A stretch of DNA of 45,519 bases from Asterionella formosa. Lineage: Eukaryota. A program made the translations under genes and the position numbers. The notes under the pieces were generated by a model. It was not told the DNA's origin. It was given only the letters and a program-made list of their open reading frames with translations, and did not search any database. Within the stretch, counting starts at the first letter, position 1. Each line of letters opens with the position of its first letter. The stretch spans positions 1 to 45,519 of the forward strand of contig NKIB01014247.1 in NCBI GenBank assembly GCA_002256025.1. Reading direction: 5' to 3'. Positions 23,955 to 32,774 of the stretch are shown here, in pieces.

Positions 23955-26105
23955 GATGTTCTAGCAGAGGCTTTCAAAGAAGCGAAATGTGAGCTTTTTC
24001 ATACTTTATCACTTTTATTCCCTGTGAATTGCTACCAGATACCACACCATCGGTAATTACATCATTCAATGTCCATTTTCTTTGCGGAGCTAGACGATAT
24101 CCACGCGGAACCTGTCGCCCATGGAGTACCTGGTACCAGGATCTGGTACCTGGTTGGGCTGGGACGTATACTAAGATAACTTTTTCCAGCCGCCGCCCGC
24201 CGGCTGAGTCGGCTCGTTGGACTACCGGTAAGTTACTGGGTAGCGTACATATTGTTATAATTGAGATACCGGTATCGGCAGTCATGATACCGGTACATAG
24301 ATAGCATACCGGTACATCACCAGTGAAGTTTACCCTATGTTTCGACTCAAACTATTTTAGTCAGATTTGCTTCATGGTGACAACAAAAATCAAGTACCTG
24401 GTACCAGTACATAACTAAGTGTAGACCAGGCTCTTAGCTTTCAATAGTCATACCGGTAGGTCTGCTTAATTAGTAACAAAGCTTCCTAATTCCATAGATA
24501 TGAAGTTTTTAAAGTTGATGATTATTAGCAAGCATAATATAAACAAGTCCTGAACATGCTTATCACAACGAAAGCATATGCAGCCGGACATAAAGAAATA
24601 CAGTTACCAATTGATTACTTCTACTAATGTGTGCTCTGTAAATTTATTGCATACCCTGTTGGAATTGCATACCCTGTTGGATCTGCATACTGCTGAAGGC
24701 AATACATGCCCAAGGTAGTCTCATGCCTGCGAGTATAAATGTGTTGCTTTGAGGCTGGGTGATGTGAGTAGGTTAACTGTATGAGTGGTGCCCCCAGTGC
24801 TGCAAGAAGGTAAGTAGCCACCGAGTAGGGTATTGTTAAGGCAATTCACAAACTAGCTATTGTCACGACATTTCCTTACCTACTGCCCACTCATGGGTTG
24901 GTGTAATTGTCAATTTTAGCTTGTTGCTATAGCCAATCATAGAAAATATATTTCGTGTATTTTGTATCTTCACATCGAAATTTGCAATGTGTCCAATATT
25001 GCCCATCATTAAAATGTATTTTGTATAATTCATATGTTCGCATTTCAGCAATACAGTTTGCGCCAATTGCCCCTCAGTTTGCCAGCCCTGGGATTGCCGA
25101 AATGGCAGGGGGTCTACTTAAGGAAACCATTTTATATACTCTACAGATTTGATTAAAAAATATGTAGTAGCTATTCACCTCGTTTTTTCGTTGCCTGAAA
25201 AAACTCCGGCAATTCACCTTTCACCGTGCCAATCATTGTCCATAATGACCGGTCCGAAGAGATATCAGTTCAGTGATAAAGCAGTGGCGATTCTTTGTCT
25301 AACAGATGCGGTCGGTTGTTGAATTGCTTGTGTTCTCATGGGATTCATGTGATCACATCGTCCATATTTTGTTGGACAAATGATGATATTGGTGCGTGTA
25401 TCTGATGTTGGTGGCAAGCTTTTGCTCCGGTCATGCATGTGATAATGCTTTACGGATATTCTAGTGATCTAGTCAACATGCATACATGGTACTCAAAAAA
25501 ACCATGCATGATTTAAGCTAAACTTTAATGCTTACTTTTAACACGCTATAATATTTTTGCTGTAGACTCGGTGTTATCTTTATGAGACCAGAATATTAAA
25601 TTATGTTGTTCACATGTTGATTGATTTTACATAGTATCATATGCCCGATTTTGTCCTCACAATTATAATTCTCACTCTATCCTGCCTGCCATTGCTCTAT
25701 TCGGACCTTGCAACAGGAGGCAACTTTCGGCACAAACAATCGCACCATAATAATATCCATTCTGCTGATCATCACTTACTGTTAGATGGGGTAACTGAGT
25801 TTGTTTGCCACATGAGGGACAACGGAAACAATTCCCTCACCCCCAAGCTGCTACCTAAAGCGAAGAATCAACCAGCCAGTCTGATGTTGTGAGACATCAA
25901 AAAATTCACTTGAGATGACAGTTGACAAGGATGATATTGACGATGAATCAGGTGATCTGTGGCAAGGGAATATTTATGGTGCATGAACTTGCATTGTTCC
26001 CTGTGTGTATGTACCAGCTAGCTTTACCATGTTGTTCTATGAAAGTTTCTGCATGAGACTGTATGAGTAATGAATCTCCGAAATTTTAAATCGACACACT
26101 TTGTG

Positions 26106-28744: not shown

Positions 28745-30210
28745 TTACCAATCGATCTCAGTCTGAGTTAACAAATAACACATTGCACAACACCATACTG
28801 CATGAACGGGTTTTGATCGCGTCAAGTTACAAAGAATACCGATAAAGCAAGCAACGCAAAGTTGCTTGTGAGCTGTAAACATGCCATAAGCATAAGGAAT
28901 GGCGGAGAACGTGCTTTCGAATTGGGGGGAGGGAAACAGGTGAGTATGCGAAAGTATACTCATCTGGTTTATTCCCACAAAAGAATGAACTTACGCGTAA
29001 ATTTGTGCAAGGTAAATGCTAAAAGTGAGCTTGGGAGGCAAAACCTTTTTGAAACGAAGTGTGTGCAAAAAGACGGCGATGCTGACCGTTCCAGCATTCA
29101 ACAAAAAGAGACCACGGATAAATCTCATGTTTTCTTCTGTTTGCTTGTTCAAGAAGACAAGAAAGTTGATGTAAAATCCCAAAAAGTATTTGGCCCAAAG
29201 GTAAAAGACTTTGACCATCAATGTCCCAACTCTGTAAAAGAGTTCATTTTCCGTAGATCGTCCAGCCATGCTACTACCAGCATTGGAGAATTGCGTAAAT
29301 GGAAACCAAGTTCGAACGAGAATGTAAGGAAAGAAAACGAACGTATACTGCAAAATCTTTCCTCCAAGATGCTGCACCACATTCTCTCGAATCAAGTCAT
29401 TGTACATGCACGAACCCGTAACGGCCAACAGAGTAAAGTACATGTTTTCGTGGACAAATATTCGCGACAAGACAGCTTTATCCGAGTAATAGCCTGCGTC
29501 TGCCAGCTCGGGGAGAACCTTGAAAGAGAAGTAAGCCGATGCTCCCTGGATGATACCTTGTTAGGCAATCAGGTGTCAGAAGGAAATCCAGCAAGAGTTT
29601 ACGCAGGGAAATAATCCACTGGAGCATCTCAAATCTTACCATTGAGCGCAATAAAATGCGGCAAATACGAATTCTTTCCATTCTCGTAGTTGGTAATAAA
29701 CTCAGTCCAAGCAGAAGCATATTGAATCAAATAAAGCAGTCCCAGGTAACGATGAATCTTGTGTCGGCGAGCTCTAGTTCCCGTCCACATACCTGCTCGC
29801 AGTGGCGACCAAATTAAGACGTAAAAAATAGAAGCACACAAAAGAGTTGTAATCAATGCAATGGCATATTCTTTGGGCTCGCGAACTTCTCCAGCAGCAG
29901 TGGCTTGCATCAAGTCCTTCAAGTAGGCCAGTTTCTCTGTGGTGGTAACATAGGAAGTGACAATGGACGATTTCCAGGCGGACAAGGTATCCAAACTGTA
30001 CACTCCGCCATAGTACTGGAATCCGATAATAATCGCAGTCAGCAGGTAAAAACTAGGAGGAATGCGATTACGATCCGCCAAGGTTTGCTGCTTCCTTGGA
30101 ACTGCAGCGATAGCGACGCCGGAATCGGAACCACTCTTTTTGGAGGGAAGGTTCACCGCTGCATCGTCGACAACATTTCCCTCGACTTTTGGGTTTGATT
30201 GAGGAGGCAT
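28745..30210 (-). CDS. Uncharacterised polytopic membrane protein, 3 exons; introns 29639-29557 and 28994-28914
   Basis: Three ORF pieces join in frame through GT-AG introns (IALNG|IIQGASAYFSFKVLP...; QIYA|TFSAIP). Multiple hydrophobic segments. Family not recognised. Confidence 0.8.
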
Positions 30211-30914
30211 CTTGTCAAATACGTTTCTTCTGAATAGCAAGAGCTACTCACTGGGTCGACTGGATTGAGACAACAGGAACCTCACTGAATGTCGACTTGC
30301 GAAGCAGGGGAGAGGCAGAAAGGTGAAAAGAAATGTAGAACGTATTATCCAGTACAAAACCAGGTATTGTTTCTACCACCATAGCATTGGATATGTTTTT
30401 ATGTATGCTCTCGTGCATGTATTATTTGTATGTACTATTTACTGTGGATATCATGCATACGGTAGGAATAGTAAAGGTGCCGTCGTTGCCAGTCGTGTGC
30501 AGGTGCCATTTTCAAGCATTACAGGTACAGGTACAATTCTACAATTCTACACAAACCACGAGATAAGATGAAAAGAAACTATCGGTATAGGCATCTGCAG
30601 CACCAGGAACCGGTACATACACCGGCATAGCTACTGTAGTATGTAAAGCACTTTGTCCTACACCATACCGGTAGTGGCTTTTGATAGGACACAAATGCGA
30701 AGGCATATCATATACCGTTAGCACAGGACGTGGTGCAAGGTACCCCTATGTATCTATTTGGCACAGCAGCTACCACCGGTATACAGTATGCTCCCTCTGG
30801 GCGAAAGGGTTGGGACGGTACCAGTACCAGGTACCAGGTACCAGGAAGGTCCAGCAGCGCACGTTTTATGCGCATCGTTTCAGTTTCTACTCAAAAACAG
30901 GGCAGGTCTTACCA

Positions 30915-31349
30915 TGTTAAAGTATTACTTTTTTGATATAGATCTATATCGTTAGACAAAGACTATAGATAGAGACGTTCGTTTCTCTTTCCGTTTCTAT
31001 ATTCTTATTGTGAGTTTACTAATCTAGTTTAAGTTGTTCTGTTTGAACAAACAAACGAACTATTCTCCAAATGCTGTTTGCATTTCTAGAAACATACAAT
31101 CATAGATAGACCCATGTCTATCTCACACTTACTGATCATAGGTTTTTCAGATCATAGGTTTTTAACCATGATCATTCATTTCAAACTATCGGTCTTCCGA
31201 AATAGCTTATATTGTCCGGCTCATTATAGTCGGAGTAACAAGGTATAATGTGTGGTTGATGAGAGCTTGGTACATCAAAGTTGACTCATTCGAATCGTTT
31301 GACTCGTTTGAGTCCGAGTCCTAACTACGTAGATGAGCTCACTTTAACA
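30915..31349 (-). repeat. Complete 435-bp copia 3' LTR
   Basis: On the minus strand it starts TGTTAAAGT (31349) directly after a purine tract GGAACAAGGAGAG (31362-31350) and ends ACTTTAACA (30915), giving 9-bp terminal inverted repeats. Confidence 0.85.
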
Positions 31350-31930
31350 CTCTCCTTGTTCCAACAATCCATCATCCCGTTTTGGATCGCGTATCCGTGC
31401 ATGTTCATAATCTTGTCCGTGACATTTTTGTTGGGACATCTGCAGGATTCTTTTCCGTATTGACGTAGTCAACCTAAATCGTTCCGTTTTCGACTTGTTC
31501 TCGTACATAGTGGTATCTTACGTCGATGTGTTTTGTACGTGCCTCGACCTGATGATTTTTCGTTGAATAAATCGCGCCGGTATTGTCCTCACCCATTAGA
31601 CTAGGCATCACGATGGTGGTTATTTCGCCAAGTAGATTCGTTGCGAAGACAGTTTCCTTTGAGCCGTTACTGAGTGCAACATATTCACACTCGGTGCTTG
31701 ATTGCGTTACGATATCCTGTCCTTTTGATATCCAGTGAATTAGGGCGCACCCTCCGATCGTGCCTAAATAACCGCTGACACTCTATCGTGTATCAGGATT
31801 AGAGGCGAAGGCCCTGTCCACGACATCTTGAATACATAGCTCGTTGGGAGCACGTAGTTTCATTCTGCATGCAAGCAATGTCCCCATGTAGACACAAATA
31901 CCCGAGTAGGCGTTCCAATGCTTGCCAGTG
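31350..31930 (-). pseudogene. Ty1/copia RT C-terminus plus RNase H remnant
   Basis: Manual translation: HWQALERLLGYL...VVDRAFASNPDTR*SVSGY...IHWISKGQDIVTQSSTECEYVALS...EDNTGAI...ARTKHIDVRYHYVRE...NPADVPTK. Two in-frame stops and two frameshifts. Confidence 0.95.
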
Positions 31931-32506
31931 TTGTTACTCCGACTATAATGAGCCGGACAATATAAGCTATTTCGGAAGACCGATAGTTTGAAATGAATGA
32001 TCATGGTTAAAAACCTATGATCAGTAAGTGTGAGATAGACATGGGTCTATCTATGATTGTATGTTTCTAGAAATGCAAACAGCATTTGGAGAATAGTTCG
32101 TTTGTTTGTTCAAACAGAACAACCTAAACTAGATTAGTAAACTCACAATAAGAATATAGAAACGGAAAGAGAAACGAACGTCTCTATCTATAGTCTTCTT
32201 TGTCTAACGATATAGATCTATCAAAAAGGTAATACTTTAACATTACCAGAGATACAAAAATTTTAAAAATGTTGCTTGGCCTAATATTTTGGATCTCCAA
32301 CATCCGGGTGGTATGTTGCTTCCAGCAACACATTTTTTGTTGCTCCAAGATGTGTATCTGTGTGTTTCGCTGCAGATACAGCATTAAGCAACACTAATCT
32401 TATAAATTTAAAATATGTCATGTAATTAAATTAATCAACAAAGACACCATTTTTATCTCTAATAGCAACAATGGAAACGAATTTTGGGAGGAGGGATCAA
32501 CAGCAA

Positions 32507-32633
32507 TTGTTGTTGTTTCTGCTGTTGTTCCTGTTGTTCCTGCTGCTGTTCCTGTTCCTGCTCCTGCTTCTGTTCCTGCTTCTGTTCCTGCTCCTGTTCC
32601 TGCTCCTGTTCCTGTTTCTGTTCCTGTTCCTGT

Positions 32634-32676
<43 letters not shown>

Positions 32677-32682
32677 GCTGTT
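32507..32682. repeat. Degenerate hexamer microsatellite (CCTGCT/CCTGTT/TCTGTT)n
   Basis: About 175 bp of period-6 repeat, open in several frames on both strands. Confidence 0.95.
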
Positions 32683-32774
32683 ACTTCTCGCCATGGCATC
32701 ATTTGATTCACATTAGTATCTAGCTACAGGAAAGGGATAGTAAATGCATGAAGCAGAGGAGACATGTTGCATGC

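Follow-up and report, generated by a model that had tools for sequence, protein, structure and literature searches.

A single chromosomal unit with inverted LTR arms and two U5 ends in a Ty1/copia family of Asterionella formosa

Several kinds of short, non-coding element combine integrase-type ends with a target-site duplication (TSD), including TRIM/LARD elements and MITEs. TRIMs have direct LTRs, a primer site and a purine tract and are multicopy; MITEs are also multicopy and derive from DNA transposons. In the accessible part of Bao et al. 2010 (PMC2836005), the path from an LTR element to a DNA transposon was called unclear, and it was suggested that terminal inverted repeats (TIRs) came from two LTRs in opposite orientation. 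A related arrangement is described in the available text on auto-integration inversion circles of Ty1 and of Arabidopsis SISYPHUS (PMC7197481), in which one arc consists of an inverted 5' LTR, the 3' interior and the 3' LTR, the same order as in the unit reported here.

The stretch of DNA analysed (the window) comprises 45,519 nucleotides of Asterionella formosa (GenBank assembly GCA_002256025.1, contig NKIB01014247.1, positions 1 to 45,519 of the forward strand). It contains a rearranged copia unit with the following features:

30900..32480, plus strand: host dispersed repeat, split by the unit, with about 9 bp to the left and at least 230 bp to the right.
30909..30914, plus strand: left copy of the TSD, ttacca (6 bp), matched in the haplotype contig C1939, with a single 6-mer in host-repeat paralogues.
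30915-32242: rearranged copia unit with TG...CA ends, flanked on both sides by ttacca.
30915..31349, minus strand: complete Ty1/copia 3' LTR, TG...CA, with a 9-bp terminal inverted repeat.
31148..31163, minus strand: 16-bp tandem duplication within the left LTR, in the window haplotype only (1 of 132 LTR copies).
31350..31359, minus strand: polypurine tract preceding the 3' LTR; the same tract stands before the LTR in the listed 3' LTR copies.
31360..31930, minus strand: decayed C-terminal tail of reverse transcriptase (RT) and RNase H, with frameshifts and stops and without gag or integrase.
31930..31931, no strand: inversion junction, RT to LTR position 109, unique.
31931..32242, plus strand: right arm, an inverted copy of the LTR from position 109 to its end (312 bp), with a perfect U5 terminus.
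31932..31936, plus strand: TGTTA, a look-alike of the integrase attachment end, at LTR position 110.
32243..32248, plus strand: right copy of the TSD, ttacca (6 bp).

Read on the minus strand, the unit runs from the inverted LTR piece (109 to end) through the RT tail, RNase H and the purine tract into a full LTR, the distal 327 bp of which (30915-31241) form the left arm. This 3' LTR is 435 bp long in the window haplotype and 419 bp in the second haplotype; the 16-bp duplication either arose after insertion or is an assembly slip. The first nine bases of the LTR are the reverse complement of its last nine. A first-pass annotation, made from the letters of the window alone, had described the inverted arms, the TG...CA ends and the flanking ttacca, and its coordinates hold, with the arms 30915-31241 and 31931-32242 differing by 2 substitutions and three indels of 16, 3 and 2 bp. 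The minus-strand LTR start that it placed at 31349, preceded by a purine tract, and the 9-bp termini were confirmed, and the RT tail and RNase H motifs that it read on that strand (SSTECEY, DNTGAI, TKHIDVRYH) are present, spread over two frames with stops. The stretch that we take to be RNase H, from its position in the element and its motifs, gave no Pfam match at E 0.01 and no meaningful PDB match. Because family copies align to the unit through exactly base 31930 and thereafter continue into RT, the junction lies at 31930/31931; the right arm is, as had been claimed, not a 5' LTR, being LTR 109 to end, inverted and fused to RT.

The 581-bp interior holds the RT tail, RNase H and the purine tract, and an integrase-like transposase is absent. 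Compared with an intact or non-autonomous LTR element, the unit has inverted arms and lacks a 5' LTR and a leader; of the features of a MITE it has the TIRs and the TSD, and copies at multiple sites are absent. The hairpin predicted for the unit, if transcribed, has an energy of -701.6 kcal/mol, as expected of any such repeat. Both of its LTR promoters face outward. The left one points towards a 204-aa ORF in the same orientation (window 29629-30243, minus strand), which has no Pfam match and whose start lies some 700 bp downstream from that LTR. Elsewhere in the window, positions 62-195 and 24836-25013 share an inverted 71-bp similarity (77%) at a distance of 24.8 kb, adjoined by an Amidoligase_2-domain gene at 271-1635.

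The genome searched was a 68.4-Mb assembly of 15,436 contigs, in which the junction 24-mer (at most one mismatch) has 2 occurrences, one in each haplotype of the unit locus. The second haplotype is spread over three contigs: C1939, which has the same junction, left flank and left TSD as the window; C10132, which supplies the right-hand TSD and flank together with the remainder of the right arm, and overlaps C1939 exactly over 127 bp across the right arm; and C7057, which extends this haplotype leftward. The haplotypes differ at 8 places inside the unit, and the second is without the 16-bp duplication. The unit is a real structure, present in a second haplotype with its own SNPs from the same assembly. 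That repeat copies were mis-assembled into the unit is highly improbable. Such an error would be in keeping with an assembly so fragmented and a family of about 200 LTR ends, and among the matches listed no public contig on the unit bridges the junction. Against it, the second haplotype, with its own SNPs, repeats the junction and the TSD on both sides across three distinct contigs; the two sides of the junction share no sequence, so that an overlap error cannot produce it; and the flanks rejoin into the host repeat with a single 6-mer. In public contigs of 4 runs that match 31242-32480, the parent RT continues at 31930 in three runs, among the matches listed. A metagenome scan with the left-flank 22-mer returned 0 matches, and one with the U5 end returned 10 loci, 4 of them LTR-similar and none with inverted ends or the unit site.

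The second haplotype also has an extra insertion 85 bp to the left of the unit (window 30824-30830), inside a GGTACC array (L059:1-507; L002:1348-1559), which is hAT-like in its matched inverted ends and what looks like an 8-bp duplication, and is absent from the window haplotype. A tandem array with a 12-bp period (GTTCCT/GCTCCT; window 32487-32700) at the end of the host repeat differs in length between haplotypes.

The split host repeat gives a view of the site before insertion. All 40 candidates scored, out of 159, matched it, and paralogues are 83-90% identical. No empty allele of the unit site was found in the assembly; in the paralogues examined (8 of 8), the start of the repeat is followed by one 6-mer and then by the sequence that lies 3' of the right TSD, and exactly six bases were therefore duplicated at insertion. 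The reading of the locus as a single insertion, proposed in the first-pass annotation, is thereby upheld, the more so as the length of the TSD is the family's own. The host repeat itself was considered as a MITE and rejected, as 3 copies examined have no terminal inverted repeat.

The parent element, which it had been proposed to seek, was found, with direct LTRs, the order gag-integrase-RT and a 6-bp TSD. The parent copy L032 encodes Retrotran_gag_2 (3e-8), zf-CCHC, rve/rve_3 (below the curated cut-off), SH3_retrovirus and then RVT_2 (2e-44), and the family is Ty1/copia, with gag and with integrase before RT. In the available text on the diatom Ty1/copia elements CoDi1-7 (Maumus et al. 2009, PMC2806351), these too have a gag with a CCHC knuckle and integrase before RT, as well as direct TG...CA LTRs, which are about 420 bp in the parent family; the extended terminal inverted repeat of the LTR is 9 bp in the parent family and up to 8 in those elements. 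The 5' and 3' LTRs of parent copies, direct and TG...CA, were paired by their 6-bp flanks and differ by 1-3 substitutions in 5 of 6 comparable pairs. A search of the genome for an exact 14-mer of the U5 end gave 202 matches, of which 2 are not LTRs; at 60 LTR ends the sequence continues into the leader.

Among 50 LTRs with host DNA on both sides, the TSD is 6 bp in 30, 5 bp in 2 and 7 bp in 1. When U3 flanks were paired with U5 flanks (11,475 pairs), 63 pairs matched at 6 bp (about 3.5 by chance), 21 at 5 and 1 at 7. Since the TSD of the family is 6 bp, the duplication at the unit is the ordinary integrase footprint of the family. An 'unusual 6-bp TSD' was accordingly rejected, and the first-pass statement that copia TSDs are usually 5 bp, given as context, does not describe this family. 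In plants, a 6-bp TSD is given for 0.4% of elements in the accessible part of one survey (PMC6317226).

Both arms of the unit belong to a minority LTR subfamily (9 of the 132 copies, among them 3 from the unit locus) and have its four diagnostic states in common. After the unit had formed, a younger subfamily spread, the copies of which have 0-2 private changes each. A full-tRNA primer site begins with TGG; the leader does not start in this way, and the family is without a tRNA-type primer site. The leader pairs with LTR positions ~273-284 in 22 of 28 5' LTRs (L068-L097, L043), over at least 11 pairs including G-U; against shuffled LTRs the support is mixed, as the commonest leader did not do better than they did (36 of 200 shuffles), whereas variants gave 0, 3 and 7 of 200.

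Some family loci are themselves rearranged. Copy L032:4114-8689 (contig C12926) has the same 6-bp TSD at its outer ends and is split by an inversion into opposed halves, the 5' LTR, gag, integrase and part of RT facing the RT tail and 3' LTR, with about 2.8 kb of host DNA between them; this is either an inversion with one break in RT or a mis-assembly. At L070:864-1284, a 5' LTR sits within the interior of a different family copy, both pointing the same way, and this is the only one of 220 host-side flanks within the family's own interior. LTRs preceded by the purine tract and followed by the leader (L031:5093-5525, L250:1101-1520) represent either collapsed assemblies or elements in tandem with one LTR in common. 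Seven LTRs 'truncated at 121' (L173, L183-L185, L189, L211, L216) were rejected as relatives of the unit: they belong to an older sister LTR, 72-82% identical over 121-419, and because all seven share a common downstream flank it was captured in another repeat and amplified with it.

The first-pass annotation left two possibilities, a one-off product or a non-autonomous, MITE-like family, and proposed a search of the genome for the junction as the test of a mobile family. That search, with one occurrence in each of the two haplotypes of one locus, bears out the one-off product and gave no second site for a family. No second contig with two outward U5 ends was found; the unit contig is alone in this among the 154 listed ends not standing before CG, a count in which 23 ends at contig ends are not judgeable and from which mutated ends escape through the use of an exact 14-mer. 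Nor was any other LTR cut at position 109 among the 22 matches without a preceding C, and reuse of the same breakpoint was rejected. Of 149 distinct ends classified, 36 come from truncated LTRs, and these include five events that join the interior to the middle of an LTR, four direct (at LTR 41, 85, 113 and 314) and one inverted, which is the unit. Seven cross-contig pairs of U5 flanks besides the unit have complementary 6-mers (about 2.7 expected); no inverted interior junction was present at the loci examined, and three are full LTRs at contig ends.

A non-autonomous mobile family, that is, a MITE of retroelement origin that the copia integrase moves as DNA, would account for the TIR-like arms, the TG...CA ends and the TSD, but its probability is close to negligible given that the junction is confined to the two haplotypes of one locus, that the unit is the sole inverted interior junction in the 36 truncated ends, that its contig alone has two outward U5 ends, and that position 109 is cut in no other LTR. 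We read the unit as an accident that happened once, at one place in the chromosomes, and not as the sign of a new mobile family.

The explanation that we favour, at a probability of roughly 0.55, is that reverse transcription went wrong and produced one DNA with two U5 ends, which the family's integrase then inserted a single time. Minus-strand synthesis would have proceeded normally through U5, R, U3, the purine tract and RNase H into the RT tail, and halted there. The growing strand may then have jumped to LTR-containing minus-strand DNA at LTR position 109, with either its own 5' portion or another molecule in the particle as template, and would have copied the LTR from 109 to the U5 end. 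Second-strand synthesis, for which extra steps must be assumed, could have yielded linear DNA with a U5 attachment end at each tip, and the family's integrase, acting in trans, could have inserted this two-U5 DNA with its usual 6-bp stagger. The jump would thus have taken place before integration, with the unit decaying in place afterwards, and it is now found on both haplotypes. Integrases accept two identical U5 ends in vitro.

Both tips of the unit are exact U5 termini and the duplication is of family length, and as one integration event explains both ends, no breakpoint has to hit an LTR boundary. The aberrant cDNA is further supported by the retained fragment, which is the part that minus-strand synthesis copies first, by the derivation of both arms from one minority subfamily, and by the lack of any LTR seen flipped in place (none at 60 LTR-leader junctions, with the leader absent from 85 U3-side host flanks). 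Against it, the junction may be a later deletion, since low-homology junctions between the interior and the middle of an LTR are common in the decay of this family, and it is without microhomology in 23 of 24 parent contexts, one parent (L025) having the unit's base. Strong-stop DNA as the source of the right arm was counted against, the leader pairing weakly placing the transcript start far from LTR 109. As to the one-off routes named in the first-pass annotation, classical auto-integration fits poorly, as the junction is at LTR 109 and not at a true, processed LTR end, and a template switch through the 9-bp termini stays live.

The two arms differ in their private changes. Of the changes that both haplotypes have and the family almost entirely lacks, the interior accounts for 6 substitutions and a 4-bp insertion, the proximal U3 for 1 change, and the left arm for 2 substitutions and 2 indels; in the right arm there are 0. 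Some of these variants are not confined to the unit: one from the interior is found in 2 copies elsewhere, and three from the left arm and the one from the U3 are each found in one copy, a different one each time. This leaves 10-12 private events in the unit. With 11-12 events, the probability that the right arm escapes all of them is 0.04-0.05, and with 10 it is ~0.07, a post hoc and marginal value, and the probability that all 4 shared arm differences are distal is 0.09. The right arm differs from the commonest state of the subfamily by 0-1 substitutions, and other members by 3-11. Two different templates would leave a right arm without private changes beside an LTR and interior with 10-12. 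No parent copy with the private changes of the unit was found among 246 family loci.

The same asymmetry bears on a rearrangement after insertion, in which an ordinary full-length element with the TSD ttacca would have lost its 5' half, a deletion joining RT to LTR 109 and U5 reaching the outer boundary through the 9-bp inverted repeat of the LTR tips, by a flip of the 5' LTR or a template switch in replication. We regard this as unlikely, though with some weight: the 9-bp tips are reverse-complementary, so a switch there does no damage to the TSD, 4 other copies show near-blunt deletions from the interior into the LTR, and the inverted L032, with its TSD on both sides, indicates that the family gets rearranged. 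It calls, however, for two rare steps, or for one complex step with a breakpoint inside a 9-bp window; a flipped LTR was seen at 0 of the 60 LTR-leader junctions; and an aged 5' LTR would be expected to have about 3-4 private changes, where the right arm has none.

The position of the junction bears on a further account. The LTR begins with TGTTA, and within its 419 bp this five-base motif occurs only at positions 1 and 110; the junction adjoins this sole internal TGTTA, one base off. A younger copy may have inserted, facing the other way, into the RT region of an older one or of the older copy's cDNA, followed by deletions, one through the 9-bp matching ends that removed the older 5' half and one of 109 bp between the two TGTTA motifs that trimmed the nested LTR. 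This nested insertion would account for the pristine right arm and, best of the accounts, for a junction one base from the internal TGTTA, with the extra base at the junction being a CpG-type variant found in 1 of 24 parent contexts (L025); self-nesting does occur in the family (1 of 220 flanks), and the same geometry was proposed for Ginger1 TIRs in the accessible part of Bao et al. (PMC2836005). It is nevertheless quite improbable, as it takes three steps and a prior point change, the sole nested case found is in direct orientation, and the nested copy must be of the same minority subfamily.

Beyond this locus, LTR retrotransposons may occasionally make DNA with U5 at both tips that is integrated normally, a recurring one-step route to TIR units that we put forward tentatively and consider possible but on the doubtful side. 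If such a route exists, it would fill the missing step of the 'reverse evolution' of Ginger and yield ready-made hairpin loci, and the unit locus would be a dated natural case with arms from two different templates. The unit provides a search signature, two outward U5 ends with a TSD of family length, by which the frequency of such events is measurable in long-read assemblies. Standard LTR finders seek direct repeats and would probably miss such units or call them MITEs.

Among known systems, the diatom elements CoDi1-7, as far as the available text describes them (PMC2806351), differ from the unit, which has inverted terminal repeats and is without gag or integrase. Auto-integration circles are described in the accessible text (PMC7197481) as extrachromosomal dead ends with a junction at a true LTR terminus, whereas the unit is chromosomal and has a TSD and a junction at LTR 109, one base from the internal TGTTA. 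With Mu killer of maize, as portrayed in the consulted part of its description (PMC3440606), the unit shares a partial inverted duplication of a transposon and a long hairpin if transcribed; the LTR promoters of the unit, however, face outward, and younger subfamilies spread later. Because a younger subfamily spread afterwards, the unit probably did not silence its family. In a literature search that covered older retroviral work thinly, no description was found of a chromosomal two-U5 element with a TSD.

A further likeness is to Ginger1, which, in the part of Bao et al. available (PMC2836005), has TIRs from opposite LTRs with TG...CA ends, ~40-270 bp long, comparable with the few hundred bp of the unit. 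The unit differs from it in having no integrase or transposase gene, in being single-copy and copia rather than gypsy, and in a TSD of 6 bp rather than 4 bp. It encodes no integrase and has not spread, but it illustrates cleanly, in a natural genome, the step from LTR to TIR that has been proposed for Ginger. The locus shows that an architecture with two identical inverted attachment ends and the footprint of the integrase itself does come about in a genome.
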